This document shows, in pieces, positions 2,897 through 43,292 of a stretch of 64,000 bases of DNA. Every line of letters starts with the position of its first letter. Within the stretch, counting starts at the first letter, position 1. The translations under genes and the position numbers were made by a program. The notes beneath the pieces were generated by a model. It did not search any database, had not been told where the DNA came from, and saw only the letters and a program-made list of their open reading frames with translations. This stretch comes from SAR86 cluster bacterium (GTDB lineage Bacteria; Pseudomonadota; Gammaproteobacteria; Magnimaribacterales; TMED112), in NCBI GenBank assembly GCA_023703555.1, contig CP097968.1, positions 842,307 through 906,306 of the forward strand. The letters run 5' to 3'.

Positions 2897-2897
2897 C

Positions 2898-3842
2898 TTA
2901 ATTACTCCGTAAATATTTTGTTATTGTAGCAGAAAAAGTTTCTATACTTTCTGATTCTCCCGCTTTTATACATGTGTCTTTATCTATTTTTTTCAACCAA
3001 TTAATTTGTGTTTTACCTAAGTTCTTTGTGGCTTTGAGTGCGTCTTGAAAGCATGCTTCAAGAGATTTTCCATTTAAACAATAAGGAAGGAACTGCTTAT
3101 AATTTATACATTGCATGCTTTGATGCTCCTGATTAAGGTTATATTTGTCTAGCACAGTTTCCAGTTCTTTCAGAAAACCACTTTTAATAATTTTATCAAG
3201 CCTTTCTTCAATTTTTTTTGTAAGTGTTTGCTTTTCCAGCATAGTTGAAAGCTTTAAGACTTTTTTTGGCTTAAAAAAAAGTTGCTTCTGTTCCTTTTTT
3301 AAATTTGAAAGTTTTTCCCCTGTGATCTGTATTATTTCAATTGCTCTTATTAATCTTCTTGGGTTCTGGTTATCAAGTGTTTCAAAAGTTTTTTTGTCAA
3401 GCCTCCTCAAGAGCTCTTGAATTTCTTTGATACCTGAGGTCTCGTAAGATTTCTCAATTTCACTTTTAATTTTCTTATCAGACGGAAAATCATGAAAACC
3501 ATTTAAAAGAACATATACATACATCATAGACCCGCCTACAAAAAATGGTATGTTGCCACGTTTCAGGATATCACTGATAGAAATATCTAAATGTTTTTTT
3601 AAAGTGCCTAAATCAAAGCTCTCTGATGGTAGCAGAATGTCAACCAAATGATGTTTGGCTTGTTTTAATTCTCTCTTATTAGGTTTGCAAGATCCAATAT
3701 TCATATCTTTGTAAACCATTGCTGAATCCAGACTTATAATCTCAACAGGAAATTTTTTTGCAATGTTTAATGAGATATTTGTTTTACCAGAAGCGGTAGG
3801 TCCGAAAAGAAATATTGCTTTTGTATTATATCTATACATCAA
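2898..3842 (-). CDS. miaA: tRNA dimethylallyltransferase
   Basis: 314 aa with P-loop GPTASGKT, followed by IISLDSAMVYKDMNIGSCKP, typical of MiaA. Confidence 0.9.
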   Translation of the reverse strand: MMYRYNTKAIFLFGPTASGKTNISLNIAKKFPVEIISLDSAMVYKDMNIGSCKPNKRELKQAKHHLVDILLPSESFDLGTLKKHLDISISDILKRGNIPFFVGGSMMYVYVLLNGFHDFPSDKKIKSEIEKSYETSGIKEIQELLRRLDKKTFETLDNQNPRRLIRAIEIIQITGEKLSNLKKEQKQLFFKPKKVLKLSTMLEKQTLTKKIEERLDKIIKSGFLKELETVLDKYNLNQEHQSMQCINYKQFLPYCLNGKSLEACFQDALKATKNLGKTQINWLKKIDKDTCIKAGESESIETFSATITKYLRSN

Positions 3843-14658: not shown

Positions 14659-15712
14659 AAATGGTAAAGATAAAGTTGATGTGCTTTATCATCAGGATAT
14701 TGATAACCTTAAAAAAGAATTTTCACTAAGAAGTAAATCAATCTTTGTTATTGATCATAAAGTTTTTCAAAATAAACAATTAAAAGATGCATTAGTTGGA
14801 TCAGAGGAAAATATTTTTTTAATTAAAGATCCTGAATTAAATAAAAGCTTCAAGGTGCTTGAAAAAATCCTCGAATTTTTCCACTCTAAAAAACTAAACA
14901 GAAACGACACAATTTTTGCCGTAGGAGGAGGTGCAGTAACGGATTTAGCTGCATTTGCCGCGTCTATCTTTAAAAGAGGCATAAACCTGACATTGATACC
15001 AACCTCCTTACTAGCTCAGGTTGACGCAACTATTGGAGGAAAAACTGGAATAAATTTCCATGGCATAAAGAACCTCATTGGAAGCTTCTATAACCCCAAA
15101 AAAATAATCATATGTACGGGATTCTTATCATCTTTAAACGATCAGGAATATTTGAATGGCTTTTCAGAAATAATTAAACACTCAATTTTAAAATCATCAG
15201 ATGAATGTTTAAATCTAATAGAAAATAGTGAAAAAATTAATTCCAGAGAAGAAACATTCTTAAGAGAATTAATAGAAAGGTCTTTGAAAATAAAAACCAA
15301 TGTAATTTCACAAGACTTTAAAGAGAAAGGACAAAGAAAATTTCTTAACTTTGGGCATACATTTGCTCATGGAATTGAATATGCTAACAAAGAAAATCCA
15401 GTTTTACATGGGCATGCAGTCCATATAGGAATGCAAATGGCTACTGAATTCTCAATACAAAAGAAAATTATTTCCATGGAAGACTATCAAATCTGTAAAG
15501 ATTTATTTGGTCTTTTTGGTTACGACTTTACTAAGATAAAACTGAATGCTGAAGAGATTTTTCAGGCTATGAAATTAGATAAAAAGAATGATAGCGACAA
15601 AGTTACTCTCATTCTTCTGAAGTCAATAGGAAGCCCTGTTGCTGTTGAGGTGGATGATGAGAATGAATTGTTGTCATTTCTTCAAGAATTTATAGATAAT
15701 TTTGAACGATAA
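14639..15712 (+). CDS. aroB: 3-dehydroquinate synthase
   Basis: 357 aa with GGGAVTDLAAFAAS, DATIGGKTGIN and GHTFAHGIE motifs. Confidence 0.9.
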   Translation: MQTIIIENGKDKVDVLYHQDIDNLKKEFSLRSKSIFVIDHKVFQNKQLKDALVGSEENIFLIKDPELNKSFKVLEKILEFFHSKKLNRNDTIFAVGGGAVTDLAAFAASIFKRGINLTLIPTSLLAQVDATIGGKTGINFHGIKNLIGSFYNPKKIIICTGFLSSLNDQEYLNGFSEIIKHSILKSSDECLNLIENSEKINSREETFLRELIERSLKIKTNVISQDFKEKGQRKFLNFGHTFAHGIEYANKENPVLHGHAVHIGMQMATEFSIQKKIISMEDYQICKDLFGLFGYDFTKIKLNAEEIFQAMKLDKKNDSDKVTLILLKSIGSPVAVEVDDENELLSFLQEFIDNFER

Positions 15713-26367: not shown

Positions 26368-26443
26368 TGGTGGAGCTATGCGGGATCGAACCGCAGACCT
26401 CCTGCGTGCAAAGCAGGCGCTCTCCCAGCTGAGCTATAGCCCC
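26368..26443 (-). tRNA. tRNA-Ala (anticodon UGC), CCA encoded
   Basis: Reverse complement reads GGGGCTATAGCTCAGCTGGGAGAGCGCCTGCTTTGCACGCAGGAGGTCTGCGGTTCGATCCCGCATAGCTCCACCA. It folds as a perfect cloverleaf with the G3:U70 Ala identity pair and anticodon loop CT-TGC-AC. Confidence 0.97.
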
Positions 26444-27666: not shown

Positions 27667-28905
27667 CTATTTTTTTACAATTTCGACACGATTTGCAATT
27701 CTTATTCCAATAAATACAAGAATTCCTGCTAATGGAAGCATTAATAACGGTGCTGCATAAAGAATAATTCCAAAAGAGATGATCATATTAAATAAGATTC
27801 CACCAGAGGCATCGCCAGAACGATTAATAAGCGTATCTATAATCACAGTAGATTTATATTTTTCAGTTTTACTTAAAGTTGTATAAGCAACTTCTCTTGC
27901 CGGTTTGTTTAATCCATATTCATAGGGTCTTTGAAATAAAGATATTATGTAAAAAAGAATTATTCCCGATGCTGGCAAAAGTAATTGACTAAAGTGAAGA
28001 GACATAAGAGTAAAAGAAATCGCGAAAAATACGCCATACAAGCCCAATACAAAGCTAAGACCTAGACGTTTGTTGGTCAAAATTAGTATAGAAGATGCCT
28101 GGAAAAAAAGTGTTAAAGGTAAGACGATGTTATCTGCAAATGAAAAAATTTGAACTTTTCTACTAGTGTCTTCTGTGTAAGCATTAATTATTTCAAGATT
28201 AAAAAAATAAAGTGCAGTTGATAAACAAGTCCAAAAAAAACCATAAGAAACTAAATACTGAATATTTCTGTTTAAACGAATCTGCTTAAACTGCTCAAAA
28301 ACCTGTTCCATCAAAATTCCAATGTTTGCTTTAGCTGAAACTTTTTTGGGAGACAATTTTGAGGAAAAGAACATTGCACATCCTAATGAGACTGCTGATA
28401 ATCCAATTGATACCTCTTCGCCCTGGTCATAAAGAAAATTAGTAACTAAAATACCAGCCAACCATCCACCAAAAGTCCCAAAAGCACTAATTATTCCATA
28501 GTTTCTTTTTCCCTCCTCTTTGTCAAAACAATTAATCGTTCTAGCCCAAAAAACTGCAACCACGAAAAAATTAAAGATGTTATACCAGACATAAAAACTT
28601 GCTCTCAATATAAAACTATCAGGATATACCTGATAGCAAAGCAAAAATATAAACATATTGATAAGTAGGAATGAGTAGACATACGTTACAATTCTGTTTT
28701 CTTGAACTTTGGAGACCGTATATGAATAAATTAAGTTTGCTGCCACCATCACCAAAACAATGAGAACTAAATACATAGGCAAATTTTGTGTGCCAATATC
28801 AGCAGCAATAGCACTTCTAAACGGACGTGTTATAAATAAAGAGAATAGAACAAAGAAAAAAAATAGTCCTGAAAAAATGGTATTTTTAGAGAATGCACGA
28901 AACAT
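27667..28905 (-). CDS. Multi-pass transporter, TLC/Npt-like (ATP:ADP antiporter-like MFS)
   Basis: 412 aa with about 11-12 TM segments. ASFYVWYNIFNFFVVAVFWARTN and KPAREVAYTTLSKTEKYKSTVIIDTLINRSGDASGG resemble signature regions of the nucleotide translocase (TLC) family. Transporter is confident. The family and substrate are tentative. Confidence 0.5.
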   Translation of the reverse strand: MFRAFSKNTIFSGLFFFFVLFSLFITRPFRSAIAADIGTQNLPMYLVLIVLVMVAANLIYSYTVSKVQENRIVTYVYSFLLINMFIFLLCYQVYPDSFILRASFYVWYNIFNFFVVAVFWARTINCFDKEEGKRNYGIISAFGTFGGWLAGILVTNFLYDQGEEVSIGLSAVSLGCAMFFSSKLSPKKVSAKANIGILMEQVFEQFKQIRLNRNIQYLVSYGFFWTCLSTALYFFNLEIINAYTEDTSRKVQIFSFADNIVLPLTLFFQASSILILTNKRLGLSFVLGLYGVFFAISFTLMSLHFSQLLLPASGIILFYIISLFQRPYEYGLNKPAREVAYTTLSKTEKYKSTVIIDTLINRSGDASGGILFNMIISFGIILYAAPLLMLPLAGILVFIGIRIANRVEIVKK

Positions 28906-28925: not shown

Positions 28926-29738
28926 TTATTTTTCATCAAGGCTTTGAAACTTTTTAGATAGCTCGTCCTGTTGGCTAAGATTGTAATTAAAATCTATTAA
29001 AGCTCCTTCCCAATCTCCATACACAGGATTCGGAAGCATAAACCAAAAATTTCCCCAGTGAGAATCATATTTTTTAAAGATGTCGTTGCGCTCTATAACA
29101 CTTAAATTATTTTCTTCTGCCCCAACAAAATCACCAAGATTATCTCCAATTATCATTACAATCCTATATTTTTCTGCAATCCTTTGAATTCTTGAGTTTT
29201 TGTTTCGATCCCAGCCTTCTTGCTCATAACGCATTAAAAGTTGATCAATATTTTCTGAAAAAGTAAAGCCTAGCTGCTCAAGATTATTTTTTGTTGCTTC
29301 TTCAATTTCAACCACTCTGTTAGTTACAAAAAAGATTTCTAATCCAAGAGATATTGCATATCTTAGATATTCTTCAGCACCCTCAATATAATCAGCTTTC
29401 TCCTCTTTAGCCCAACTAATCCAGCCATCAGGATATGCAGATCGTTTTTTAATCATACGTGCTTGGTATGCAATATTGTTTAAAACAGTTTGATCAACAT
29501 CTAAGATAACTGCTGGTGGCTTTCCAGAATAATCAGTTTTTTGAACCAAAGCGGCTGTGTGACTTTTATCAGCAATTAAAGTAGGCAGCCTAGACATTGC
29601 AGCCCTATAGATGCTAGTGGTATTTGCCTTATACTCAGCAGAACTTTGTATGTAAAGTGTTCCAAGCAGGGATTCTTCTTCAAGATATTCAGTACTTAAA
29701 ACAAAAGAAAAAAATATTAAAGTTAGAAATCTTCCCAT
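28926..29738 (-). CDS. Class C acid phosphatase / 5'-nucleotidase, e(P4) family (HAD superfamily), secreted
   Basis: 270 aa with a signal peptide and the class C bipartite DDDD motif: AVILDVDQTVLNN ... FFVTNR ... IGDNLGDF. Confidence 0.8.
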   Translation of the reverse strand: MGRFLTLIFFSFVLSTEYLEEESLLGTLYIQSSAEYKANTTSIYRAAMSRLPTLIADKSHTAALVQKTDYSGKPPAVILDVDQTVLNNIAYQARMIKKRSAYPDGWISWAKEEKADYIEGAEEYLRYAISLGLEIFFVTNRVVEIEEATKNNLEQLGFTFSENIDQLLMRYEQEGWDRNKNSRIQRIAEKYRIVMIIGDNLGDFVGAEENNLSVIERNDIFKKYDSHWGNFWFMLPNPVYGDWEGALIDFNYNLSQQDELSKKFQSLDEK

Positions 29739-29772: not shown

Positions 29773-32349
29773 TTAGTTCCTTAGAAGGGAGAATTGGATA
29801 CTTATCATTCTGCCTCTAGGATCGTGAACCCTTGTATCATAGCTAAAGTCAGGTGCGTCATATAATAAAGGTGGGCCTTCGTCAAAAATGTTAATAATCG
29901 AGAAGGTTGTTTGCAAGGAAAAGTCAGTATTGGTTTTAAAAGCTCTAAAAAAATTATCCAATGGATATTCCAAAAATAAATCATGCACCAAGAAAGCATC
30001 AACTCTATTGGTATATCCAAGAGCTTGTGCGCTATTTGGTATTGATCTTAAATTTTCGTAACTATCAATAAATCTTGTAATCACTCCAGCTCGACTATCA
30101 TTTTTACTCCATACCAATTGGTTATTAATTCTAAATTTTGGCAATGAAAATGTATTATTATCAAAGTTAAATCTACCAACCCTGTTAATCATCACAGTGG
30201 AATCCAAACTCTCCGGAGTGAGGAACTCATCCAATTTCGTTCCTTTGAGGTCTATTGTGAATGTGCTGCTATCAAAGAAGTTAAATTCTTGAAAGTAATT
30301 GAAATCGATACCACTGACTAGTGTACTTGATTCATTAAAATATCTCGTTGTAACTCCAATCAAATCTCCTAAATTATTTCTTGTTATTGATGAGCCGTAG
30401 GGGTCAGATTCTATTAAAGCTTGTGCACTTTCAACCTCTATTCTGTTGGTATAGTCGATCTCCCATAAATCTAAAGAAACTTTTATTTGATTGTCTTGAT
30501 AATAAATGCCAAAGTTCGTATTTTGTGAGACTGATGGCTTTAATTCAGGATTTCCTAATTGGGCTTGCCTAACAAAAACACTTCCTTCAACATCTCTAAC
30601 ACTACCAAGTCTGATTTGACTTGAAAAAAGCTGTCCCATTGAGGGCATTTTAAAAGATTCGCCTTTTGCAATTCTCAGAGAAAGGTTTTCAAACGGCTTA
30701 AAATTTACAGAAAGTTTAGGATTAAATGATGAAAATTTATCTGCATCTTCATACCTTCCAGAAAATACTAAGGTAAATGATTTTGTAAAATCTCTACTTC
30801 CTTCAAAAAATAAAGACGATTTGTTTCTTGATCTTTCTACATTTTGCCCACCGCCCAAGAAAAATAAATCTGCTGTTTTAGTTAGCTTCCCATCTGAATC
30901 AAATTCAACTCTAGATAGTTCGTTAAATCGAATTTTTAGCCTGTCTCGACTTTGTTGAATACCAAAGCCAATATTTAAGTTAAGGTCCTTTTGAAACGTT
31001 CTGGCGATTAAATCAAAAACTGTCAAGCCTCCGGTTTTGTTTGACCTTTCAAAGCCCTTTATATAAGAAATAAGTGATGCTGAATTATTTGCTGGATTAA
31101 AAATGTCCCACTGTTCATTATTGCTTGATCCGCCAGACCCATTCAGTGCACTTAAAAATCTTGAATCAATAATATCTGGTCTTCGATGAAGATTTTCATG
31201 TTGACTATCAGTAACAGAAAATTCAACCTCAAAATCTCTGTAAATTAATTCGTACGCATAACTAAAATGGTGTTGTGAGATATCTTTTGGTGAAAAAGGT
31301 GAGGGGTATCTGCCTCCCAAAGGTCTTCCAAGCCATCTTACTGGAACATTAAATGGACTCCCACCAACACCTGGCATTATTTCTCTTGATAAAAATGGTA
31401 ATGCAGGATATGAGGGTGATTGAGGATTATCAATAACCTTTACATTTGATGCAATTAGCAAAAGAGAATGCTGAAAACTATTTAAGTTTAAATAAAATTT
31501 CTCATGTGACTCGTTATTTACTAAGTTAAATCTAGTGCCATACTGAAACCTGCAACGTCCAGATAAAATACCACCATTTTCAACACAATTTGGATCAGGA
31601 ACTAGGGCCCCTTCTTCATATTCCCCAGCGTAAGGTCCTTCTTCAACTGTATCTGCTTCGGTGAGGACAAACGAGTTCCCTAAGCCACTGACCGCTAATT
31701 CAGCAAGTTTTCTAAAGTCTATAACTGGTAGAGGGCTTCTCTGCAAGTTGTTATAGCCAAAGACAAATTTTAAGTCTTTGAAATTGGCTCCGTATAAGAA
31801 ACCAAAAGTATTATCGTTTTGATCGTAGTTAGCAGTTTGGCGACGTCCAAAATTAACTTTTAGCCCATTGAACTCTTTAAATGTTAAGACGTTGACAACA
31901 CCAGAAACTGCATCTGACCCGTAAGTTGTTGAGGCGCCTTCTTTTAAAATTTGTACTTCGCGTAATGCAACTTCAGGAATGATACCAATATCTATGTAAC
32001 TTCCCCCGTCATCAGAGGGAGTGCCTGCAAAAGTCTGTCTTTTGGAATTGATCAAAACAAGGGTAGATTCTTGTTCAAGACCCCTCAGGTTTATTGATGC
32101 CATTCCCTGATCTTGGCCCCCTAGAGTATTGCTTTGAAAACGCGAACCAGAAGAAGAAGTAATATATTGACTTAGCTCAGCAAAGCTTACCAGACCAAAA
32201 TCTTTAATTTGTTGGGTTTTAATTATTTCTTTTTCAACAGCATTTCCTGTTGTGCTTGTTAATAAACTTCCCGTGGTTACAACTTCTTCAATATCATCTG
32301 AAGAAAAAACATAAAATGAAATAATTAGTAAGACTAACCTCTTAAACAC
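29773..32349 (-). CDS. TonB-dependent receptor
   Basis: Plug and barrel, with TonB box DDIEEVVTTGS. The track start (32397) lies inside a terminator hairpin. I prefer GTG 32349-32347, which gives a clean signal peptide MFKRLVLLIISFYVFSS|DD. Confidence 0.85.
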   Translation of the reverse strand: MFKRLVLLIISFYVFSSDDIEEVVTTGSLLTSTTGNAVEKEIIKTQQIKDFGLVSFAELSQYITSSSGSRFQSNTLGGQDQGMASINLRGLEQESTLVLINSKRQTFAGTPSDDGGSYIDIGIIPEVALREVQILKEGASTTYGSDAVSGVVNVLTFKEFNGLKVNFGRRQTANYDQNDNTFGFLYGANFKDLKFVFGYNNLQRSPLPVIDFRKLAELAVSGLGNSFVLTEADTVEEGPYAGEYEEGALVPDPNCVENGGILSGRCRFQYGTRFNLVNNESHEKFYLNLNSFQHSLLLIASNVKVIDNPQSPSYPALPFLSREIMPGVGGSPFNVPVRWLGRPLGGRYPSPFSPKDISQHHFSYAYELIYRDFEVEFSVTDSQHENLHRRPDIIDSRFLSALNGSGGSSNNEQWDIFNPANNSASLISYIKGFERSNKTGGLTVFDLIARTFQKDLNLNIGFGIQQSRDRLKIRFNELSRVEFDSDGKLTKTADLFFLGGGQNVERSRNKSSLFFEGSRDFTKSFTLVFSGRYEDADKFSSFNPKLSVNFKPFENLSLRIAKGESFKMPSMGQLFSSQIRLGSVRDVEGSVFVRQAQLGNPELKPSVSQNTNFGIYYQDNQIKVSLDLWEIDYTNRIEVESAQALIESDPYGSSITRNNLGDLIGVTTRYFNESSTLVSGIDFNYFQEFNFFDSSTFTIDLKGTKLDEFLTPESLDSTVMINRVGRFNFDNNTFSLPKFRINNQLVWSKNDSRAGVITRFIDSYENLRSIPNSAQALGYTNRVDAFLVHDLFLEYPLDNFFRAFKTNTDFSLQTTFSIINIFDEGPPLLYDAPDFSYDTRVHDPRGRMISIQFSLLRN

Positions 32350-32365
32350 GAAATAGATTATATAT

Positions 32366-32395
32366 AAAAAAAGGGCAGGCCCAACGACCTGCCCC
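32366..32395 (-). terminator. Rho-independent terminator after the His-rich TBDR gene
   Basis: Minus strand reads GGGGCAGG-tcgttggg-CCTGCCC followed by TTTTTT(a). The stem is 7 bp of G/C, 23-52 nt downstream of the stop at 32418. Confidence 0.7.
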
Positions 32396-32417
32396 ATAAA
32401 AAGGAGTTTAATTTAAT

Positions 32418-34649
32418 TTAAAACTCTAAATTAAACCTAAGACCAAAATTAACCCCTGGAAGTGGCACCTCATCTTTGACATAGGAAGCATGATTTCTTG
32501 CAACCTCATCTAAAAGATTATTGGCAAAAAATGAAACACCAAGATTAAATTGACTAGATAGCCCAATCTCTTTTTTAACCAAAAGATTCAACATCTTGAA
32601 TCCTTCTGTTTCAGTTTCCCCATCTCCAATTATAGTTTGTCGATCAACATCTTTGAGAGTGAGTCTCATTCTGTAATCACTAGCCCTGTAAGATAATGTG
32701 TACAAACTTCTTGCTGGAACCAATCTAGGAACATTTTCTCCGTTACTGAATTCACCATTGACTGAATCTCTTCCATAGCTAAGCACAAATTCACCAGTAT
32801 CCGTAATGAATCTTCTACCAAATTCAAATTCATAGCCGTTAAATTCAGCATCCTGTTGAAGAAAATCCGCGTGGATCAAATCACCATGCTCTTCATGCTC
32901 ATCGTGATCTTCATCACCATGGTCCTCATCACCATGGTCCTCATCATGATGCTCTTCTAACTCATCTTGAAGATAAATATAATCGTCAATGTTATTTTGG
33001 AATAAAGTTAATTGACCAAAATAATCTCCATCATCAAAAAATAACGATCCCTCGAAGTTATTGGCTCTCTCTGAAGATAAGTTGATGTCACCTGTTTCAA
33101 ACCTGCCACGCGCTAAGTGTGGTCCATTCATTGCCATCGCAGTACCAGATGGAGCACTAGCAACACTTGAAAAACTTATATCGAAACTAACTGCATCAGT
33201 AAGCTGTCGACCAAGGCTTGCAGAGAAACTTAGATCGTCAAAATCTTTATCAAAATATTCAACTTCCATTTCTTCATGCTCATCATGATCCTCATCACCA
33301 TGATCCTCATCATCATGATCATCATGTCCTTCCTCTTCATGACCTTCTGTAATTGAGCCTTGTCTATTAACCTGATCATAGCGCAAACCTAAATCTAAGC
33401 TATAACCTGATAAATCAAGACCAGCATAATAGCCAAAATTTAAACTCTCGCTTTGCATTGGATCCATAAATGCTTCGTGTCCAGCAATGGATTCATCCAT
33501 GGAAAGAAAGTTCACCATTAATTTCTGAGATGATATGAGTCCTGATGTTGGAAGATCAAAGATAGCACCAAATTCTTGAGCAATGTTGGTAAAGACAGTT
33601 GGTCCCTCTTCATGACCATGATCGTCATGTTCTTCTTCATCATGATCACCTTCCTCTTCAGCATGCTGCTCTTGAAATGTATAATCAGTATCTCTAAAAA
33701 AGTAATCAACTTTATTTACAATAGAGCTATTTAAGACTAAACCACCACTGACATTTACAGCCTGTGAATCAGTGAAGGCATATATTCTTTCACCCTCGTG
33801 CTCATCGTGTCCTTCCTCTTCTTCACCCTCTTCTTCACTGTGTTCATCACCATGAAAAGGTATTCCATACTCTGTCTCTTGATCTTCAAGAGAGACACCA
33901 AGATAGCCCCAATCACCTGTAACTGAGAGGCCAACCCTTGAGGTTGTTGAACCAAAATCTGAATTTGCCAAAGTCTCAGCATCCATTTCATCATGATCCC
34001 CTTCTTCTTCATGCTCATCTTCCGAGTGAAGAATTGCACCATTTGGAATTGCATAATTTCCGAACTGGGAATCTTTGTAAGCCAAAGACAAATTTACACC
34101 TGCAACATTTTTTTGGTACGCAAAATTTTCAGCATTTCCCCAATTGACACTCTGTTTCTCAAAACCTAGGCTTCCAACTTGTTCCTCAAAATCAGTTTTT
34201 GCAATGGTGTTATCAATTACATTAATAACTCCTCCAATAGATCCTTTTGCATAAAGCAATGACGACGGGCCACGAATAATTTCAACTTGTGACACATTGT
34301 TAAGATCCACCTCATTTAAGTGATCCGCTCCCATGCCTGCGACGTCAGCGACACTAAGACCATTTCTAAGAATCTTTACCCTTCCATCTAAAAGCCCACG
34401 GATTGCTGGCTGACCAACAACTGCACCATAGTCCACTGAGGATACACCTAGCAATTCATCAAAGGATTCTCCAAGACTTTGTGTCCCTGAGTCCTCTAAA
34501 TCCTCTCCACTTACCACATGTATTGGGTCACCAATTTCTGATAATTGTCTATCATCACTTGTTAATGACGAAACAACTACCACCTCTTCAACTTCTTGTG
34601 ATACCAAGAATGACGATATAAAAATTAAACTTATTAAGATTTTTTTCAT
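32418..34649 (-). CDS. TonB-dependent receptor with five His/Asp/Glu-rich inserts (ZnuD-like metal receptor candidate)
   Basis: 743 aa with a signal peptide, TonB box EVEEVVVVSS, a plug (IRGPSSLLYAKGSIGGVINV) and a C-terminal ...RFNLEF. A strong AGGAGG lies 7 nt upstream. The five acidic His clusters are described in the findings. Confidence 0.9.
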   Translation of the reverse strand: MKKILISLIFISSFLVSQEVEEVVVVSSLTSDDRQLSEIGDPIHVVSGEDLEDSGTQSLGESFDELLGVSSVDYGAVVGQPAIRGLLDGRVKILRNGLSVADVAGMGADHLNEVDLNNVSQVEIIRGPSSLLYAKGSIGGVINVIDNTIAKTDFEEQVGSLGFEKQSVNWGNAENFAYQKNVAGVNLSLAYKDSQFGNYAIPNGAILHSEDEHEEEGDHDEMDAETLANSDFGSTTSRVGLSVTGDWGYLGVSLEDQETEYGIPFHGDEHSEEEGEEEEGHDEHEGERIYAFTDSQAVNVSGGLVLNSSIVNKVDYFFRDTDYTFQEQHAEEEGDHDEEEHDDHGHEEGPTVFTNIAQEFGAIFDLPTSGLISSQKLMVNFLSMDESIAGHEAFMDPMQSESLNFGYYAGLDLSGYSLDLGLRYDQVNRQGSITEGHEEEGHDDHDDEDHGDEDHDEHEEMEVEYFDKDFDDLSFSASLGRQLTDAVSFDISFSSVASAPSGTAMAMNGPHLARGRFETGDINLSSERANNFEGSLFFDDGDYFGQLTLFQNNIDDYIYLQDELEEHHDEDHGDEDHGDEDHDEHEEHGDLIHADFLQQDAEFNGYEFEFGRRFITDTGEFVLSYGRDSVNGEFSNGENVPRLVPARSLYTLSYRASDYRMRLTLKDVDRQTIIGDGETETEGFKMLNLLVKKEIGLSSQFNLGVSFFANNLLDEVARNHASYVKDEVPLPGVNFGLRFNLEF

Positions 34650-34691: not shown

Positions 34692-34955
34692 TTATTTTTT
34701 CGGAGGTGCTCGAGATAAAGAATCTCTAAGAATTTTGTCGTGAGTAAGTTGTCTTAGTGAATTACTAACTACACTTGCAATAGGGTTTTTGTATATATTC
34801 TTATTTATAAAAAAATTTGTAGAATTTTCACTCTCACAAACGTGACAAGATATTACCTCAACCTCTTCGTGAAAATGATCGTGGCTAATTTCATGTAAGG
34901 GAAAGCTCACTCCCAAAATGAAAATTAGAAATAACTCAAAATACTTTTTATTCAT
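34692..34955 (-). CDS. Small exported/membrane-anchored protein with His cluster and CxxC
   Basis: 87 aa with an N-terminal hydrophobic segment, then HEISHDHFHEE and CHVCESE. It lies 42 nt upstream of the His-rich TBDR on the same strand. No obvious SD sequence. Confidence 0.5.
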   Translation of the reverse strand: MNKKYFELFLIFILGVSFPLHEISHDHFHEEVEVISCHVCESENSTNFFINKNIYKNPIASVVSNSLRQLTHDKILRDSLSRAPPKK

Positions 34956-35033: not shown

Positions 35034-36395
35034 TTATTTAGATAGTTCAATTAATTGGTTTGGCTTATTTTTATGTTTTTTTAATTTAAATTCATCATAT
35101 AGATTTCCTGTAGCATCAAAGGCTTGGAATCGTAAATCATTACCTGATATCTTGATTATCTGGTACAGCTGTGTATCTTCTAAAATTTTTTTTGCGTAGT
35201 TGCCTTTCGTAAATTCATACATTTTCGGGCCACTTACCGATACAACATAGACTGTCCCTACATCGGGATCATAAGCTTGTTGGTAACCATTAGGCACATT
35301 TTCAACCTTAGCTCCGGCAAGGTCTCCAGTTCGAGAATATACATGGTCATGACCGTTGAGCACTAGATCAACTTTAAATTCATCAAACAATGGCTTCCAT
35401 AGTTTCCTTAAATGAGGATTGTCACGATCGGTTCCAGGTGAATAAATAGGATGATGAAAAGTAACTACTGTCCATTTATTCGGATTTTTCTCTAAAACAG
35501 ATCTAATCCAAGGAACTTGCTCCTCTTGCGCAATATTTGAGTCGAGAGAAATGAATCTTACTCCTTGATAATCCAAGTAATAAACTGTCTCTTTCAAACG
35601 CTCATCTGGTATATTTTGAATAGGAAAGACAAATTGTGGTTGCCAGTGAGCACTTATTTCAGGAGCAGTTCTCTTAGCTTCTGAATATTTTACATACTCA
35701 TGATTTCCAGGAGTAGCTAACAGAGGTATTGTTGCATTTACCCAGTCTGGGCCTTCGTGCCACTCACCCCAATTGGAATCCATATCTTTAATATCCACAA
35801 GATCTCCAGCATGAAGTATAAAAGACGCTCTCGGAGCATCACGAAAAGCCTCCCTAAATACTCTTGACCAGTGAGTTCTTACTTCGTTCTGAGCATCACC
35901 AAAATAGATAAAACTAAAGGGTTCTGGGTAAGAGCTTGCTGTCTTGAAATGGAAATATTCACTCCAATTTACTCCATCTCCCACTCTATATACATAAAGG
36001 GTATTTGGATTCAAGCTCCTTATGGTAATACTATGGTAATGAGCTTGATTTATATCACTCTGAAAAAATAAAGTTTTTGCCTCGAATAAATCTGGGTTTA
36101 AGTCGCGCCCACTGGCATTTGCAACTGCTATTTGGACAAAAGCTTTTTTTACAGAAGTATCTGTTCTCCATGTGATGGATTGCGTTGTTGCTGGATTATC
36201 TTCCCAAGTCAGAACTATACGATCCGGCATTGGAGTTGGTTCATACATTTCTACAGATGAATATTTAACGATACCCGAATTATCATGAGCTAATGCATAG
36301 AGGCCTAAAAATAAACCTAGGAGTACTGCTCTTGCAAACTTAAACATTGTTTTTAACAAGTTGATTAAAGATGTATTTAATATGTTTTGGCTCAT
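35034..36395 (-). CDS. Secreted metallophosphoesterase, purple-acid-phosphatase-like
   Basis: Calcineurin-like motifs GDAQN, HAGDLVD, GNHEY, HHPIYS and GHDHVYSR, with an N-terminal PAP-type beta domain. An alternative start at 36347 (MFKFARAVLLGL...) gives a cleaner signal peptide. Confidence 0.8.
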   Translation of the reverse strand: MSQNILNTSLINLLKTMFKFARAVLLGLFLGLYALAHDNSGIVKYSSVEMYEPTPMPDRIVLTWEDNPATTQSITWRTDTSVKKAFVQIAVANASGRDLNPDLFEAKTLFFQSDINQAHYHSITIRSLNPNTLYVYRVGDGVNWSEYFHFKTASSYPEPFSFIYFGDAQNEVRTHWSRVFREAFRDAPRASFILHAGDLVDIKDMDSNWGEWHEGPDWVNATIPLLATPGNHEYVKYSEAKRTAPEISAHWQPQFVFPIQNIPDERLKETVYYLDYQGVRFISLDSNIAQEEQVPWIRSVLEKNPNKWTVVTFHHPIYSPGTDRDNPHLRKLWKPLFDEFKVDLVLNGHDHVYSRTGDLAGAKVENVPNGYQQAYDPDVGTVYVVSVSGPKMYEFTKGNYAKKILEDTQLYQIIKISGNDLRFQAFDATGNLYDEFKLKKHKNKPNQLIELSK

Positions 36396-36448: not shown

Positions 36449-36525
<77 letters not shown>

Positions 36526-36570: not shown

Positions 36571-37215
36571 CTACTTATCCCATATCACTTTATAAATTAA
36601 ATAACCTAATAATCCTCCCATAATCTGAAAAATAATAAATAATGGAGCATCATTAAGATTAATGCCGGCAAATGTATCTGAAAAAATTCTCCCAAATGTA
36701 ACTGCAGGATTAGCAAAAGAAGTTGATGCTGTAAACCAATAGGCAGCACCAATATAAGAAGCTACCATTATTGGAACTTTTTTAGCATCTGAAGCAAAGA
36801 TAATCATTATTAGGCCGGCAGTAGCGATTAGCTCTGAAAACCACAAATTTGAACCTGTTCTTATTTTTGTTGATAATTCAATCAATGGTAAATTGAACAT
36901 TAAATTAGCAAGTACTGCCCCTAATAATCCTCCCAAACATTGAACTGCAGCGTAACTAATAAAAGCTGGAAATTTTAATTCTCCTCTAATGTAGCTAACT
37001 AAGGACACAACAGGATTAAAATGAGCGCTCAACGGAGCAAAAATTGTAATCAAAAAGTATAAACCCCAAAACGTAGCTAAGGAATTTGCTAAAAGTGCAA
37101 TACCATCGTTTCCATCCGATAAATTTTGCCCCATTATGCCTGAACCCACTACAACACAAACCAATAAAGCTGTGCCTGTAAATTCAGCAAATATTTTATT
37201 CTTAAATTTACCCAT
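36571..37215 (-). CDS. MIP-family channel (aquaglyceroporin, AqpS-like arsenite channel candidate)
   Basis: 214 aa with six TM segments and two half-helix motifs, HFNPVVSL (NPV) and NPAVTFGR (NPA). Overlaps arsC by 8 nt. Confidence 0.8.
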   Translation of the reverse strand: MGKFKNKIFAEFTGTALLVCVVVGSGIMGQNLSDGNDGIALLANSLATFWGLYFLITIFAPLSAHFNPVVSLVSYIRGELKFPAFISYAAVQCLGGLLGAVLANLMFNLPLIELSTKIRTGSNLWFSELIATAGLIMIIFASDAKKVPIMVASYIGAAYWFTASTSFANPAVTFGRIFSDTFAGINLNDAPLFIIFQIMGGLLGYLIYKVIWDK

Positions 37216-37594
37216 TCAATAGTTCAGTATTAATTTTCATCTCTATTAAGTCTCTAATATTATCAAAATCATCATCGTTCATATGTTTTGGATCAGGTAT
37301 CTTCCAATCTAAAGTTTTGGTATTTGGAAAAAAAGGACATTCATCGCCACAACCCATTGTTACAACATAATCAAATCTTTCGTTAGAAAAATTTGTGACA
37401 TTCTTTGGTTGAATTTCGTCAAATATAATACCAATCCTTTTGAGAGAATCTATAGCTTTTGGATTAACAGTTTTAGCAGGCTGAGATCCAGCTGATTTTG
37501 CAAAAATTTTATCACCATAAATTCTATTACTAATTTGTTCAGCTAATTGACTTCTGCATGCATTCTCAACACATACAAACAATACATTTAGCAT
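37208..37594 (-). CDS. arsC: Arsenate reductase, LMW-PTPase family
   Basis: 128 aa with VLFVCVENACRSQLAE (the CX5R P-loop) and TMGCGDECP (distal Cys pair). Confidence 0.85.
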   Translation of the reverse strand: MLNVLFVCVENACRSQLAEQISNRIYGDKIFAKSAGSQPAKTVNPKAIDSLKRIGIIFDEIQPKNVTNFSNERFDYVVTMGCGDECPFFPNTKTLDWKIPDPKHMNDDDFDNIRDLIEMKINTELLNG

Positions 37595-37595
37595 A

Positions 37596-40115
37596 CTAAA
37601 AGCTGTATTTTACACCTAAAGATATTGATGAAGCAGTGGAATAGCTTTCGAAAACTTCATTACCTTGTAGAGCTTCATAGGGGTCTTCTAATAAATTTCT
37701 CAGCTTTAAAGTGATGTCAAGCGTACCATCTAAAGCGTAGTAAGTTCTATTATAAACTACGTCCAACTGAGCTGGTAAATCTTCCATAACATTGGGGATA
37801 GTATCAACTCCAAGCTCTCTTATTCTATTGCCAACATCATTGTAAACAACGCTAAACCTTGAATCATCAGCTCCATAAAAACCAAACTGAAGATTAAAAA
37901 TATCATCAGGCTGCCCAACAAGAGGTCTATCGTCATAAGAGGATAAAGTTATGTATTCAGGATTGGTTACTGCATTTGAATCTGTATAGGTATAGTTCAC
38001 TTTTCCAAAAAAATCATACCCAGATATTAATTCGCCAAATTGTTTTTGAAATTCAAATTCTGCTCCCTCAAGAGTTGCAGATGCAGCATTTCTGTAACTT
38101 ACGTAAGAGTCGGTTGCTGCTGCTTCTAGAACTTGTTCAATTGGGTTTATAAAGCTCTTCTCAAAATAGGAGATCGTTAAAAACTCATCGAAGCCAAAGT
38201 AATACTCATATCGCAAATCAATATTTTCAATTTCCGCTGAAGTTAATTCTGCAAATCCTCTTTCAAACCTATCCGTTTCGAAGTTAACAAATAATACTGG
38301 AGACATTTCTCTAAATTGTGGTCTAGAAACTGTTTCACTAAAACCAATCCTTACTTGCATATTTTCTGCCAACTCATAAGTTAAAGTTAATGCGGGCAAT
38401 AATTTATCCAACTCATCAACAGATTGAATATTTGTTTGATTGCCAAAAAATTGTTGAGTATTTGTTTCGATAAAAGATTCTTCATTTCGAGCTCCGATGC
38501 TTAAACTCAATTGATCTGAAATATCTGTTTCCAGTGAAAAATAGTAGGCATCTATAGTCATATCACCAGTGTAATCATCGGTATTTAGCGATAATTCTTG
38601 CAACACCAAACCAGTACGATCATATCTAAAGTTTTGTGGATGCATTATTGAGTTAATTGGCTGTCTTCTAAATTCTTGATCAGCAAATAAAGCCCCATTA
38701 GTAAAATCTGGCAAGAATGCATATCTTTTCACGTCTGTTTGTCGGTTTTTTTCTGAATGAATTAAACCAAATTTGAAATCTATTAATAAATCCCCAGTTT
38801 CGATAGGATAGTAAAAATCTACTGCCGCCTCGGATGAGTCATCATTTAACCAGGAAAAATTTGTGTAATTACTATCTTGTCTTCGGGAAAATTCATATGC
38901 ACCATTGTTAAATTCATAAAAATGTTCTCTTTCAAATGGTGATTCTCTTTTACCAGTTGAACCATTCAATCTCCAATCAATGGATAACCCGTTTAATAAG
39001 TCGTGTTTACCTGACAATGTTACAGTTTTAATCTCTCGTTCAACCCATTCAGATTTTGTTCTACGCTCATCAAAATCTGCTTCAACATTCCTACCCTCAC
39101 TAATTGTTGTCCTACTATCTGTTTTTCTTACAATTAATCCTGTGAACTGTAGATAATTAAAATCATCAATATCCCACCCAAGAGTACTAAGAAAATTTGT
39201 ATCTATTTGATAATTTGCTTTTTTTACTGCGTAGTTATTTCTTCTAACTAAATTTTCTCCTGACCCACTTGACCATTCTGATCGAAGAATATCAGGTTGA
39301 TTATCTTTACTTGAATCGTAACCTGCACTAATTAATAGACCCAATCTGCCCAGCTCGTTTAAGTCATAAGCATTGCCATAACTGACATCAAAACCGAAAT
39401 CTGGATATAGTTCGGTTTTAAGTGGTTGCCAAGTACCAGTAAATCCTTGAGCAGCATATTGAATATCGTAATATGATGAAGTCGCTAGAGAAATGAAATC
39501 CGAATTTGCATAAAGTGGTGCTAGTGATGCAGGCAAGTCTCTGTCACCCATATCAAAACCTGTCCAATCATTATCGTATTGCGGCATCAAATCTACTTCC
39601 TCGCCCGTGGCTAAAGAATCGTAAGAAGTAGAAAAACTAATTTCAGTAAATTCTTGGTCTGGTATCAATTTTGTTCTCATATCGATCACTCCGCCACCAA
39701 ATTCACCTGGATATTGAGCGGAGTATGTTTTTTGTACTAAAACGGAGTCCAATATTGAAGTTGGAAAAATATCAAAGGGGACAACTCTTTTTAAAGGTTC
39801 GGGGCTAGGCAATAAAACACCATTCAACAACGCTGAGGAATATCTCTCACCTAATCCTCTAACATAAACATATTTTCCTTTTACTAAACTTAAACCCGTA
39901 ATTCTTTTTAATGCATCAGCAGCATCGCTATCTCCAGCAACACTAATGTCTTCTGCATCAATAACATTAGAAATTTCACTAGTATCTCTTTTCTCATCTG
40001 GAATAAAACTTTCTACAACCCTAACCTCTTCAACACTATCACTGGCCACATCTGTTTCTTGGGCATAAGAAATTATTGATATTAAAAGTGATGATATTGT
40101 GAACAAAATTCTCAT
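37596..40115 (-). CDS. TonB-dependent receptor
   Basis: 839 aa with a signal peptide ...SYAQE, TonB box VEEVRVVES, plug YVRGLGERYSSALLNG...PGEFGGGVIDMRTK and a C-terminal GVKYSF. Confidence 0.9.
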   Translation of the reverse strand: MRILFTISSLLISIISYAQETDVASDSVEEVRVVESFIPDEKRDTSEISNVIDAEDISVAGDSDAADALKRITGLSLVKGKYVYVRGLGERYSSALLNGVLLPSPEPLKRVVPFDIFPTSILDSVLVQKTYSAQYPGEFGGGVIDMRTKLIPDQEFTEISFSTSYDSLATGEEVDLMPQYDNDWTGFDMGDRDLPASLAPLYANSDFISLATSSYYDIQYAAQGFTGTWQPLKTELYPDFGFDVSYGNAYDLNELGRLGLLISAGYDSSKDNQPDILRSEWSSGSGENLVRRNNYAVKKANYQIDTNFLSTLGWDIDDFNYLQFTGLIVRKTDSRTTISEGRNVEADFDERRTKSEWVEREIKTVTLSGKHDLLNGLSIDWRLNGSTGKRESPFEREHFYEFNNGAYEFSRRQDSNYTNFSWLNDDSSEAAVDFYYPIETGDLLIDFKFGLIHSEKNRQTDVKRYAFLPDFTNGALFADQEFRRQPINSIMHPQNFRYDRTGLVLQELSLNTDDYTGDMTIDAYYFSLETDISDQLSLSIGARNEESFIETNTQQFFGNQTNIQSVDELDKLLPALTLTYELAENMQVRIGFSETVSRPQFREMSPVLFVNFETDRFERGFAELTSAEIENIDLRYEYYFGFDEFLTISYFEKSFINPIEQVLEAAATDSYVSYRNAASATLEGAEFEFQKQFGELISGYDFFGKVNYTYTDSNAVTNPEYITLSSYDDRPLVGQPDDIFNLQFGFYGADDSRFSVVYNDVGNRIRELGVDTIPNVMEDLPAQLDVVYNRTYYALDGTLDITLKLRNLLEDPYEALQGNEVFESYSTASSISLGVKYSF

Positions 40116-40167
40116 ATAGACTCCTACGAGATTAAAGTTAACTCTAAATTAATACTTTAAAGATTCC

Positions 40168-40188
40168 TTTTTGTAACAAATTTGTAAC
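40168..40188 (-). promoter_or_regulatory. Direct repeat GTTACAAAT-tt-GTTACAAAA upstream of the TBDR gene (candidate -35 element or operator)
   Basis: Minus strand reads aaaGTTACAAATTTGTTACAAAAAgg, 53-73 nt upstream of the ATG at 40115 and immediately after the terminator T-tract. TATTAA lies 16 nt downstream of TTACAA. The same TGTTACAAAA word occurs upstream of the lipoprotein gene. Confidence 0.3.
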
Positions 40189-40191
40189 TTT

Positions 40192-40218
40192 AAAAAAAGC
40201 TACCCTCGAAAGGGTAGC
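40192..40218 (-). terminator. Rho-independent terminator after the lipoprotein gene
   Basis: Minus strand reads GCTACCCT-ttcg-AGGGTAGC followed by TTTTTTT. It is an 8-bp perfect stem with a TTCG tetraloop, 21 nt after the stop at 40239. Confidence 0.85.
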
Positions 40219-40238
40219 TTTAATCATCAATATTTTTA

Positions 40239-43181
40239 CTATTCTGATGAACTAGCTGGCTTAAATGCCCAATTATCAGTCCAATCGGCATCTGCTGAAG
40301 GAACAGCTCCGACATGTCCTGTTACCTCGAAGAAGTCTCCTGCAACAGTAACTGGGGTTAAAGCTGACTCCGTAGCACCATTAACATATCCTGCTAATGA
40401 AGCGCCTCCTGCTGAAGCAGTATTAGTATTTGAGGATAATAAAGCTTCAATTTGAGCAGCAGTAGGGCCACTAGTATCTTCCTGTGCTAACGTTGCACAA
40501 GCAAACAAGTTACCATCATAGTCATGACCTTCTCCGGCAGTACCGTCACCATTAAAGTCATAAGTTTCATCATTATCTATATCCCAACATGTGCTTGCTC
40601 CTTCATCAGCAACCACTGAGTTATAAATATTCAGACCTGTACCCTCTCTAAGTAGTACTGCCTGCCCATCTCTACTAACAATTGTTAAGTTAGCAAATGT
40701 TGGTAATGATCTTGGCTCTCTATCCATATCTGAACCGTAGTTATCAGCTTCGATAGATCTGTCAACATCAAATGTTTGACCTTGATTTTGCCAAACAATT
40801 GCATGCTGTACATTACCTCGCCAACCATCAGTCCAATCTATAGAGTCATCCGAAGCACCCATTACAAGTAAGTGCTTAGCATTAACAGTACCTCCAAAGA
40901 ACTCTACACCGTCATCAGATGTATTGTAGGTCTGAATATAATTTAGTTCAGTTAGGTTACCCACAGCTTGGAATGCAATACCATTCAATTCATCTTCTGA
41001 GTTAAATAGTCTTCCAGCATGTTTTAATACAAGGTAGAAAATATTTCCACTATTGTCAGCATCGTCAATACCACCGTAAGAGCCTGAACCTCCTTCACCA
41101 TCTGCAGTACAATTTGCTGTACCAACATCTGAAAGATTACAAGCTGTTTGACTAGCTAGACCATTAATAACCAAACCACCCCAGTCGGATGCCACACTTG
41201 ACATATCTGCAGCTGTATCTCTAACTTCTCTACCTGAAGTCATAGTGACGGGAGCACCAGGTGCACCATTAATCATTATTTTAGAATGAATTGGGACAAG
41301 AACGGCATCAAAATCTGTTATTGCACCTTCACCAGCATAACTGTCACTGTATAGGGTAACACCAGGATCAATTTGCAAGTACTTAGCACCAGACCCATCT
41401 GCAGCCCCAGTTCCAACTTTTACTTGTTTAACCATCAAGTATGGTAAGCCACCACCGACAAGTCTTATATTCTTGTCTTCGGATTGAGCTGAAACAAGCT
41501 CACATGCCGCACCAGCACCATCTTTCATATTTCCAAGTGTCGTTCCATATGGACACTCAAATGAATCCATATGAAGACCAAAAGTCCAGCCTTTGGTCCA
41601 ATCGTTAGCATCACTTTCAACGCCACCAATAAAAGAGGCATCTTCTAGATTTGCATCTTGTGCACTAGCAGTCGCTAATGAATATCCTGAAGCAAGTGGG
41701 TGAGTAATATAAGCTGCATTTCTCATACTTCCATGTAAGCCAGAAGCACCAAAATGGGCGCCATTATTTCCTGTTAAGATATAGTCGCTTACACTAAAAG
41801 CATTTGGAAAATCTGCTTCGCCAACTTCTTCGTCTTGCACTAAGCCCCCTTGGCCAATTGCGCCACACTTAATGGAGTCAAAAAGAGTTCCAGCAAAGCT
41901 TAAACCGTTTTCTTGAGCCATAAAGCGATATGTTTCATCATCATCGACATCAACACAACCTGAACTACCTTCTGCGTTTCCTGATACTATTGAATTCAAA
42001 AGTTTTACACCAGTTCCCTCTCTAAGTTGTAGGGTATCGCCACCATAATCTTGGACAAAAGTAATATTTGCCAGAGCTGGGAATGATCTTGGCGATCTAT
42101 CCATATCACTGCCATAATTATCAGCTTCGATAACATTGTCTTTAGATCTTGCTGCATCTGTTACAGGGAAAAGTGTTTGTATAACCACACCGTATTGTGC
42201 AAAACCTCTCCATCCGTCTGTCCAGTCAACAGAGTCATCTGAAGCACCGGTGACAACAAAATGCTTCATACCTACAGTACCACCAAAAAATTCAATCCCA
42301 TCGTCTGAACCATTATGTACCTGAATGTAGTTAACAGATGTTCCAGAACCAACTGCTTGAAAAGCAACGCCATTCAATTCATCGTCATTAGAGAACCTAT
42401 AGCCTGCATATTTAACTTGCATGTAATTGATTGAACCAGAATTATCTTCATCGTCTGTGCCGCCGTAGTACCCTGAGTCTCCTTCACCTTCTGCAGTACA
42501 TGCAGCTGTTCCAAGGTCTGCTTCATTACAATTATTTTGAGCTGCGAGACCAGATATAACTAAACCACCCCATTGTGCTTCAGCACCATCTGTTACTTCA
42601 CCTGTTAAATCACTTACACCGGTCATGATGACAGGAGCTGAGGCAGTACCATTCACATTCAACTGAGAATTTGGACTAACAACCAAGTAATCCACATCAG
42701 AATCAGAGACTGAATCGCCGAGAGATGCAACAAAGCTTGTTGCGTCTTCAAATCCGGCACCTGCGGTACCAACTATTGTTGTACCTGCTTCAATTGTCAA
42801 TGATCCGTTATCTCCCGCACTTGAGCCATCGGCGTTAATCCCTGCACCAACAAATACTGCTCCATTTAAAGCATAAATTGCATCAGAGCTTATTGTTACA
42901 TCAGATGCTATTGGGGCTGATGATGGGAAAGTAAGAATACACACAGATTTACTTTGACCATCAAAGTCAGTAGCAACAATGCCTGAATCTTCACCAGCAG
43001 CACATGCAGAAGGTGCAGGTGTTGGTTCTGGTGTTGGTTCTGGCGTTGGAGCCGGCGTTGGCGCTGGCGTTGGAGCCGGCGTTGGAGCAGGAGTAGGAGC
43101 TGGCTCACTTGAACCACCACCACAAGCTGCAACAAATAAAGTCGTTATTACAATCGAAATAGGATTAAAAAAATTTTTCAT
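40239..43181 (-). CDS. Large lipoprotein of unknown function with Pro/Thr linker and two tandem copies of a roughly 450-aa module (beta-helix-like)
   Basis: 980 aa with lipobox LFVAAC (Cys20), a GGGSSE(PAPTP)n linker, then two homologous halves (about aa 76-535 and 540-975). Details are in the findings. Confidence 0.85.
43011..43103 (-). repeat. 12-nt-period tandem repeat encoding the (A/E)PTP linker of the lipoprotein
   Basis: Plus strand reads ggtgttggttct ggtgttggttct ggcgttggagcc ggcgttggcgct ggcgttggagcc ggcgttggagca..., encoding [31 protein letters not shown]. Confidence 0.9.
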
Positions 43182-43230
43182 AAAATTCCTCTCAAACGAA
43201 ATTGTTCTAAATTTAATGTTATGAGTTATT

Positions 43231-43292
43231 TGTTACAGAAATTTGAAGTATTGAAACAGTATTAAAAATTTTTTGTTTCTATTTTGTAACAG
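43231..43292. promoter_or_regulatory. Inverted pair of TGTTACA(A/G)AAT words upstream of the lipoprotein gene
   Basis: Plus strand has TGTTACAGAAAT at 43231-43242. Minus strand has CTGTTACAAAAT at 43292-43281. The pair sits 50-111 nt upstream of the ATG at 43181. Confidence 0.3.

Follow-up and report, generated by a model that had tools for sequence, protein, structure and literature searches.

What does a SAR86 cell gain from a 980-residue, two-module lipoprotein whose gene is followed directly by that of a TonB-dependent receptor? The question is raised by a stretch of 64,000 nucleotides (nt) from SAR86 cluster bacterium (GenBank assembly GCA_023703555.1, contig CP097968.1, positions 842,307 to 906,306 of the forward strand), hereafter called the window. 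An earlier reading, made from the letters of this DNA alone (the sequence-only reading), had described the lipoprotein as uncharacterised and without a named family, and had proposed that it is a tethered surface partner of the receptor with SusD/SusC logic. The second proposal matches published homologues: ElpS of Caulobacter is surface-exposed (PMC2996285), and BT4056 has been proposed as a 'lid' (bioRxiv 10.1101/2023.03.17.533168). The first did not stand: the gene pair is known from the literature, and the lipoprotein belongs to the ElpS family, with PF28492 very probably its Pfam model. The window genes probably represent, in SAR86, the pair formed by ElpS and a TonB-dependent transporter, which would serve uptake at the outer membrane in phosphate starvation. 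New here is the placement of the pair in SAR86 with both modules intact; it is no new kind of system. The main functional clue, absent from the sequence-only reading, is its link to the phosphate-starvation (Pho) regulon.

A large protein search with the window lipoprotein returned 457 relatives. A precomputed match to PF28492 (Beta_helix_4) was present on 120/120 among the matches listed, including those at 97%, 71% and 69% identity, and membership of the window protein is therefore very likely. A direct Pfam scan of the window lipoprotein returned 0 families; the copy of Pfam scanned predates PF28492. NCBIfam models (ClfB, SslE and TonB) matched the protein only on its Pro-rich tether, and these matches were therefore treated as a composition artefact. 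The closest loci in reference genomes were from SAR86 (69-73% identity). The family comprised 3,769 cluster representatives at E<=1e-10, and species-level genomes that carry it numbered at least 580.

Primer sequences for elpS were taken from Text S1 of PMC2996285, and metagenome contigs were scanned with the native 3' end of the gene. One contig (L085) was obtained. Its open reading frame (ORF) at 2461-4008 on the minus strand starts with MKLYRNL, has LAGC at residues 17-20, Asn38 and a PTTP tether, and ends in TACTSLPTN. Three primer sites were exact, and the reverse transcription PCR primers for elpS and cc0171 matched with 2 and 1 mismatches, respectively. Because it fits the published descriptors and the primer sites, the ORF is, as judged from its sequence, elpS of a close Caulobacter relative. 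In BLASTP searches, identity to this recovered ElpS was 34% for module 1 of the window lipoprotein (E=3e-44) and, across 417 residues, 30% for module 2 (E=2e-40). The window receptor aligned to the receptor encoded downstream of elpS in the same contig at 30% identity (E=1e-82). Since both modules and the receptor align to their counterparts, membership of the window lipoprotein in the ElpS family was regarded as established at the sequence level.

Caulobacter ElpS (CC0170 / CCNA_00169) is a lipoprotein of approximately 50 kDa, and its gene lies just before those of the receptor CC0171 and a type II secretion operon. ElpS is produced only in phosphate starvation, is palmitoylated, resides in the outer membrane and is sensitive to proteinase K when cells are intact. 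Cleavage before Asn38, a step dependent on the secretion system, releases it, and its over-production raises alkaline phosphatase activity in the supernatant. elpS and cc0171 are regulated separately (PMC2996285 for all of these). Beyond the homologous beta-helix module and the receptor gene immediately downstream on the same strand, the two systems share an N-terminal lipobox followed by a Pro/Thr-rich tether (NNPTTPTTPTTPTTPTTPTG in ElpS), a Pho-box-like sequence upstream and the family-wide invariant residues. They differ in that ElpS has one module (515 amino acids, aa) and the window protein two (980 aa). ElpS also deviates at near-invariant positions (DVDVGAR for DWTxGWRG, EIDSNG for IEADN), whereas the SAR86 modules follow the consensus. 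The Caulobacter pair fronts the operon that releases ElpS; neither GspD nor other secretion genes were found in the window, and the SAR86 lipoprotein therefore probably stays tethered.

Two further relatives have been described in Bacteroidota. BT4055/BT4056 is a transporter with a putative lipoprotein lid; BT4056 was reported as homologous to ElpS and as a member of the pectin-lyase superfamily without a Pfam family, and genes of this type occur together in 621 genera, 171 of them Proteobacteria (bioRxiv 10.1101/2023.03.17.533168). Fjoh_0545/Fjoh_0546 ('FII') of Flavobacterium johnsoniae lies in the phoBR operon and is up by log2 8-10 on phosphate depletion, and its lipoprotein is abundant in the exoproteome; Lidbury et al. 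suggested targets of the plant-cell-wall type (PMC8115612). Both are the same combination of transporter and lipoprotein with a pectin-lyase-type fold, for which a 'lid' or capture role has been proposed. BT4056 and Fjoh_0546 are tied to the window protein via ElpS and the statements of these papers.

The pairing itself was assessed by tblastn of the window receptor against 84 loci encoding relatives of the lipoprotein. A full-length receptor relative (27-75% identity, aligned from approximately residue 37 to 839) adjoined the lipoprotein gene in 78 of them, mostly downstream and at times upstream; in 3 of the 6 remaining loci the contigs end too soon. In Bacteroidota the receptor usually comes first; of the four Bacteroidota loci sampled here, two (L060 and L065) have it upstream and two (L071 and L079) have it downstream. 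Represented among the loci as a whole are Alpha- and Gammaproteobacteria, Bacteroidota, Desulfobacterota, Bdellovibrionota and Acidobacteriota. Because it is kept across several phyla, the pairing is an old, co-inherited unit. Neighbourhood conservation had been named as a check by the sequence-only reading, which had also placed the receptor correctly on the same strand after the lipoprotein gene; the intervening distance is 123 nt. The window receptor scored 43.7 bits with the Plug model (cut-off 23.9) and 222.7 bits with TIGR01782, which is below the cut-off of 310, so that it is not a scored member of the 'Xanth-Caul' subfamily.

Neighbouring ORFs of all loci were clustered, and recurrent clusters were named by scanning their representatives. 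A response-regulator/sensor-kinase cluster was present in 27 loci, often right beside the pair, and its representative was PhoB (TIGR02154, 362 bits). It was often accompanied by a PstS-family protein, PstB or an exopolyphosphatase (Ppx). A second recurrent context was an energising system of the TonB2 type (DUF3450-ExbB-ExbB-ExbD-TonB-TPR). In Alphaproteobacteria a prepilin peptidase gene lies upstream and GspC/GspD genes downstream of the pair; this secretion linkage was confined to 12 alphaproteobacterial loci. The order prepilin peptidase, ElpS-like protein, receptor, GspC, GspD was seen in L001, L007, L010, L036, L041, L050, L053, L057 and others, which share the published Caulobacter layout.

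Upstream regions were scanned for the Pho box CTGT[CA]A[TC]-N4-CTGT[CA]A[TC] within 270 nt ahead of the pair in 75 loci and in 430 control upstream regions. Sites matching at 12/14 positions or better were found in 53% of the loci vs 10% of the controls (Mann-Whitney p=9e-23), typically approximately 80 nt ahead of the start codon. In the window, counterparts of the best site, CTGTAACAAATAACTCAT, were kept in two SAR86 relatives (L005 and L006) while the remaining spacer had diverged. Within approximately 3 kb of intergenic DNA in the window, the half-site TGT[ACT]AC occurred only around the lipoprotein gene, at position 388 and beside a tRNA. The last of these, TGTTAC at 36441, was rejected as a Pho box; it directly adjoins the 3' end of tRNA-Ile.

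In several loci a gene for a 2-oxoglutarate (2OG)-Fe(II) oxygenase (PF13640, prolyl-hydroxylase-like) was seen directly upstream of the ElpS-like gene (L004 7055-7852, L026 4799-5599, L027, L032 and L052), where it comes after phoB-phoR and usually pstS. L026, L027, L032 and L052 are from Alteromonas; L004 is labelled Flavobacterium sp., probably wrongly. As it is rich in Pro, the tether of the lipoprotein might be a target for hydroxylation.

A model of the window lipoprotein was built with AlphaFold2 on 69 homologues. Two right-handed beta-helix domains were predicted, with a mean predicted local distance difference test score (pLDDT) of 82.9 and a predicted template modelling score (pTM) of 0.68. 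The best Foldseek matches in the PDB were two-domain alginate lyases of polysaccharide lyase family 6 (PL6; E=7e-5 to 2e-4) and the epimerase AlgG; tailspikes, pectate lyases and PL9 enzymes were also matched. The parallel beta-helix guessed at in the sequence-only reading is thus borne out by the model, by the beta-helix enzymes found with Foldseek and by the Pfam name, and the prediction that it had called for gave an ordered, repeated fold. PL6 enzymes (AlyGC, 5gkd; BcAlyPL6, 7dmk) and AlgG (4nk6) have the right-handed parallel beta-helix in common with the modelled lipoprotein, and the PL6 enzymes likewise bear two tandem helices. Identity is only 8-9%, and the likeness is therefore one of predicted fold only; whole-chain TM-scores were 0.12-0.18, and the biological context of the window pair (Pho regulon, transporter partner) is different. 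No relative of the window lipoprotein emerged when PDB sequences were searched with the single sequence and with a profile; the sole matches were insignificant ones to GlmU, a left-handed beta-helix.

For residue conservation, 605 non-identical modules were aligned. Positions conserved in at least 96% of them were WGG, GG..D.SG, D293 D294 G.E297.FGG, D315 D316 S.D319, Q329, E352.D354, N372, R387 and N396. None of these family-wide invariant residues is lost from ElpS or from either window module, and both window modules therefore look functional as judged by these residues. Eight of the invariant residues are carboxylates which, together with the Arg, lie on successive rungs; the pattern suggests a metal-assisted site for an anionic ligand.

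Modules were counted in 227 fetched homologues with a module hidden Markov model. One module was found in 16, two in 174 and three in 37, so that duplication is not special to the window gene; tandem modules are the norm among marine Proteobacteria. In the full-library search, as many as five stretches of a single protein were matched. Examples with three to five tandem modules are P0228 (2035 aa), P0275 (2403 aa) and P0043 (1372 aa). Modules within a protein were on average 69% identical, vs 55% for equivalent modules between proteins, a difference which suggests repeated duplication or gene conversion. The window protein had the most diverged module pair of the set (49%).

Taken as the SAR86 form of the ElpS pair, the system would work as follows. 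The lipoprotein would be exported, lipidated at Cys20, sorted to the outer membrane and, by analogy with Caulobacter ElpS, displayed on the cell surface, where its Pro/Thr-rich tether of approximately 33 residues would keep the two beta-helix modules off the membrane. In each module the same invariant acidic and polar ladder on successive rungs (D293 D294 E297, D315 D316 D319, Q329, E352 D354, N372, R387, N396) would form a metal-assisted groove in which a phosphorus-bearing polyanion is bound and perhaps cut. The captured ligand would be handed to the TonB-dependent transporter encoded alongside and drawn into the periplasm, where phosphatases would free its phosphate. An ArsC-like protein and an MIP channel encoded behind the receptor gene would handle arsenate entering alongside, and a terminator between the two genes would lead to more lipoprotein than transporter being made. 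The logic is that of SusD/SusC and TbpB/TbpA-type pairs, in which a surface lipoprotein captures ligand for a TonB-dependent transporter encoded next to it. SusD is all-helical and TPR-like and TbpB has a beta-barrel/handle architecture, whereas the window lipoprotein is modelled as a right-handed beta-helix and has no homology to either. Neither a SusD Pfam match (PF07980/PF14322) in the lipoprotein nor a SusC signature (TIGR04057) in the receptor was found. By analogy, the window pair may work like SusCD although it is not a member.

Several points weigh against this account. Surface-exposed lipoproteins are unusual in Proteobacteria. No ligand has been reported for any ElpS-family member, and the nearest modelled folds, polysaccharide lyases and epimerases, could equally indicate a glycan substrate. 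The best Pho-box site in the window matches 11/14 positions, a score also reached by 23% of control upstream regions. No phoB, phoR, pstS, tonB or exbB gene was found in the window, and SAR86 genomes have been reported mostly to be without a high-affinity Pst system. For the relatives, purified and refolded ElpS had no phosphatase activity, and deletion of elpS left the phosphatase activity of the supernatant unchanged (PMC2996285). AlphaFold-Multimer gave few high-confidence contacts between BT4055 and BT4056 (bioRxiv 10.1101/2023.03.17.533168).

The beta-helix fold also raises the prospect that the modules are surface enzymes (lyases, hydrolases or phosphodiesterases) which cut an anionic polymer outside the cell (for example a phosphorylated or uronic-acid polysaccharide, a teichoic-acid-like polymer or polyphosphate), the transporter importing the fragments and the lipoprotein being a processing enzyme more than a lid. 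This was judged rather unlikely. PL6 alginate lyases, AlgG, PL9 and tailspike depolymerases are the closest folds, yet no such enzyme exceeds the low identity given above, and no profile match to solved structures or to any carbohydrate-active enzyme (CAZyme) Pfam family was obtained. The invariant carboxylates and Arg387 resemble the Ca2+-plus-base sites of pectate-lyase-type enzymes; no activity has been reported for any ElpS-family member. The plant-cell-wall-type targets proposed by Lidbury et al. (PMC8115612) and the indirect rise in extracellular phosphatase activity on ElpS over-production would fit an enzyme, but genes for carbohydrate catabolism are not recurrent in the neighbourhoods.

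That absence, which extends to glycoside hydrolases next to the pair, bears equally on the idea of carbon-scavenging glycan uptake, in which the pair would be a genuine equivalent, in Proteobacteria, of a polysaccharide utilisation locus and, in SAR86, would have no particular connection to phosphorus. Such a role is improbable, even though the fold is pectin-lyase-like, the receptor resembles the TIGR01782 'Xanth-Caul' subfamily, which includes sugar transporters, SAR86 leans heavily on TonB-dependent transporters for organic substrates and the Pho box of the window is weak. Strict phosphate control has been seen experimentally in two distant organisms, many loci have phoBR, pstS, pstB or ppx beside the pair, and the upstream regions are enriched in Pho boxes. 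Least credible of all, and already very unlikely, is that the lipoprotein is an adhesin or surface-coat protein whose gene lies next to a receptor gene incidentally in this genome. Many adhesins have beta-helices, the weak fold matches included Antigen 43 and the adhesin PfbA, and the protein is repetitive with a Pro-rich stalk. One receptor clade nevertheless adjoins it in 78/84 loci across phyla, which excludes chance, and an invariant polar site is kept in both modules.

The features of the locus and of the DNA farther along the same strand are given below.

Coordinates of the ElpS-type locus and neighbouring features (positions in the window)
Feature	Position	Strand	Basis
Promoter region with two Pho-box-like sites, CTGTTACAAAATAGAAAC (43275-43292) and CTGTAACAAATAACTCAT (43221-43238)	43221..43292	-	Consensus match
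ElpS-family lipoprotein gene, 980 aa, two beta-helix modules	40239..43181	-	ORF, translation, BLASTP, AlphaFold2
Signal peptide, aa 1-20, with VAAC as lipobox (Cys20 the lipidation site, Gly at +2)	43122..43181	-	Read off translation
Low-complexity tether, aa 21-58, (A/E)PTP repeats	43008..43121	-	Translation
Module 1, aa ~60-535, predicted right-handed beta-helix and C-terminal sub-domain ending DWTKGWTF	41577..43004	-	AlphaFold2, BLASTP
Module 2, aa 536-980, predicted second beta-helix, ending DWTDNWAF	40242..41576	-	BLASTP, invariant residues
Intrinsic terminator hairpin between lipoprotein and receptor genes	40192..40221	-	11-base-pair stem, -18 kcal/mol, z=-5.3
Repeated GTTACAAA element (AAGTTACAAATTTGTTACAAAAAGGAATC) ahead of receptor gene	40160..40190	-	Conserved in three SAR86 loci
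Cognate TonB-dependent transporter, 839 aa, CC0171 / BT4055 type	37596..40115	-	Plug, TIGR01782-like C-terminal half
ArsC-like arsenate reductase (37208-37594) and MIP channel (36571-37215)	36571..37594	-	Pfam LMWPc, MIP; NCBIfam arsenate reductase models
tRNA-Ile(GAT)	36449..36525	-	
Purple-acid-phosphatase-like metallophosphoesterase	35034..36395	-	
87-aa ORF, signal-like N-terminus, His/Cys-rich stretch (HEISHDHFHEE...CHVCE)	34692..34955	-	
ZnuD-like TonB receptor	32418..34649	-	NF038289, 181 bits, below cut-off
TonB receptor	29773..32397	-	
Class B (HAD IIIB) acid phosphatase	28926..29738	-	
Unannotated 412-aa ORF	27667..28905	-	
tRNA-Ala(TGC)	26368..26443	-	

Every feature that the sequence-only reading had described within the lipoprotein was found again at the positions given. 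The lipobox is present, and the Gly at +2 after Cys20 is not an inner-membrane retention residue. The (A/E)PTP tether, put at roughly 30 residues, has a stretch of 33 (aa 26-58). The two halves are homologous, at 44% identity over 439 columns (E=6e-88, BLASTP of half against half). The conserved cores had been converted correctly from aa 181-415 to nt 41937-42641 and from aa 642-872 to nt 40566-41258, and the Cys pairs, the (S/E)PRS motif and the DWT(K/D)(G/N)W(T/A)F ends occur in both halves. The gene had also been called noticeably G+C-rich. It does have the highest G+C of the 53 window genes (0.425 vs 0.344), but no signal was left past amino-acid composition: its G+C at third codon positions (GC3) is 0.225 (rank 43/53; mean 0.251). 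The excess is confined to codon positions 1 and 2 and thus reflects a Gly/Ala/Asp-rich protein; foreign DNA as its cause was ruled out, as GC3 lies below the window average.

The strong terminator noted after the lipoprotein gene was confirmed by direct folding; it was not detected by a simple consensus scan. A hairpin with a different stem sequence lies at the equivalent place in L005 and L006. The repeat ahead of the receptor gene has the form TTGT(T/C/A)AC-4 nt-A(G/T/A)GA(A/T)TC in three SAR86 loci. The GTTACAAA element could possibly be a separate promoter or a weak Pho box, its match to the consensus being weak. By analogy, terminator and conserved repeat fit the separate regulation of elpS and cc0171 in Caulobacter, and would let the lipoprotein be made in excess.

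Between the receptor gene and the arsC-like gene there is a gap of 1 nt, and the arsC-like gene shares 8 nt with the MIP gene; the three are therefore probably co-transcribed. The order tyrS, saccharopine-dehydrogenase-like gene, lipoprotein, receptor, arsC-like gene and MIP is kept in two SAR86 relatives, with the ArsC-like and MIP genes lying behind the receptor gene at 11628-12639 in L005 and 11669-12666 in L006. An arsenate reductase and an aquaporin-type channel form an arsenate-detoxifying pair in Sinorhizobium. The SAR86 arrangement resembles a phosphate-starvation transporter to which arsenate detoxification has been coupled. A phosphate-like oxyanion as cargo would be in keeping with it, although this is only a hint.

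Farther along the minus strand lie tRNA-Ile, a gene for a purple-acid-phosphatase-like protein, two more receptor genes and a class B acid phosphatase gene, and both phosphatase genes sit within the same-strand cluster as the pair, as does the 412-aa ORF. The two phosphatase genes were dropped as parts of the system, as SAR86 relatives do not keep them, or the two further receptor genes, next to the pair. This cluster may be an island for scavenging phosphorus whose make-up differs among SAR86 genomes. The 87-aa ORF lies directly upstream of the ZnuD-like receptor gene and, from its His/Cys-rich stretch, could encode a small metal-binding partner. The genes for tRNA-Ile(GAT) and tRNA-Ala(TGC) are usually found together in the rRNA spacer. 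In the window they are approximately 10 kb apart, with the phosphatase and TonB-receptor genes between them, and in L006 tRNA-Ile likewise comes after the ElpS locus (14693-14769).

SAR86 bacteria rank with the most abundant in surface seawater, which is often poor in phosphate, and in both organisms tested the ElpS/transporter pair belongs to the systems with the strongest phosphate-dependent induction. The window offers a clean and compact locus, with a Pho-box-like promoter followed by lipoprotein, terminator, receptor, arsC and aquaporin genes. A tentative proposal, put forward with low confidence, is that the ElpS-type beta-helix is a new metal-assisted 'phosphophore', a surface receptor or enzyme for inorganic or polymeric phosphorus such as polyphosphate, metal-phosphate complexes or phosphorylated glycans. 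If this is true, having several modules (two in the window protein and as many as five in others) would make capture more efficient, and the arsC and aquaporin genes would hint at an oxyanion cargo that is mimicked by arsenate. Phosphophore and transporter together would then let Pst-poor oligotrophs such as SAR86 bring phosphorus through the outer membrane under TonB power. Naming the cargo of the pair would name a form of phosphorus that is imported across the outer membrane with TonB energy.

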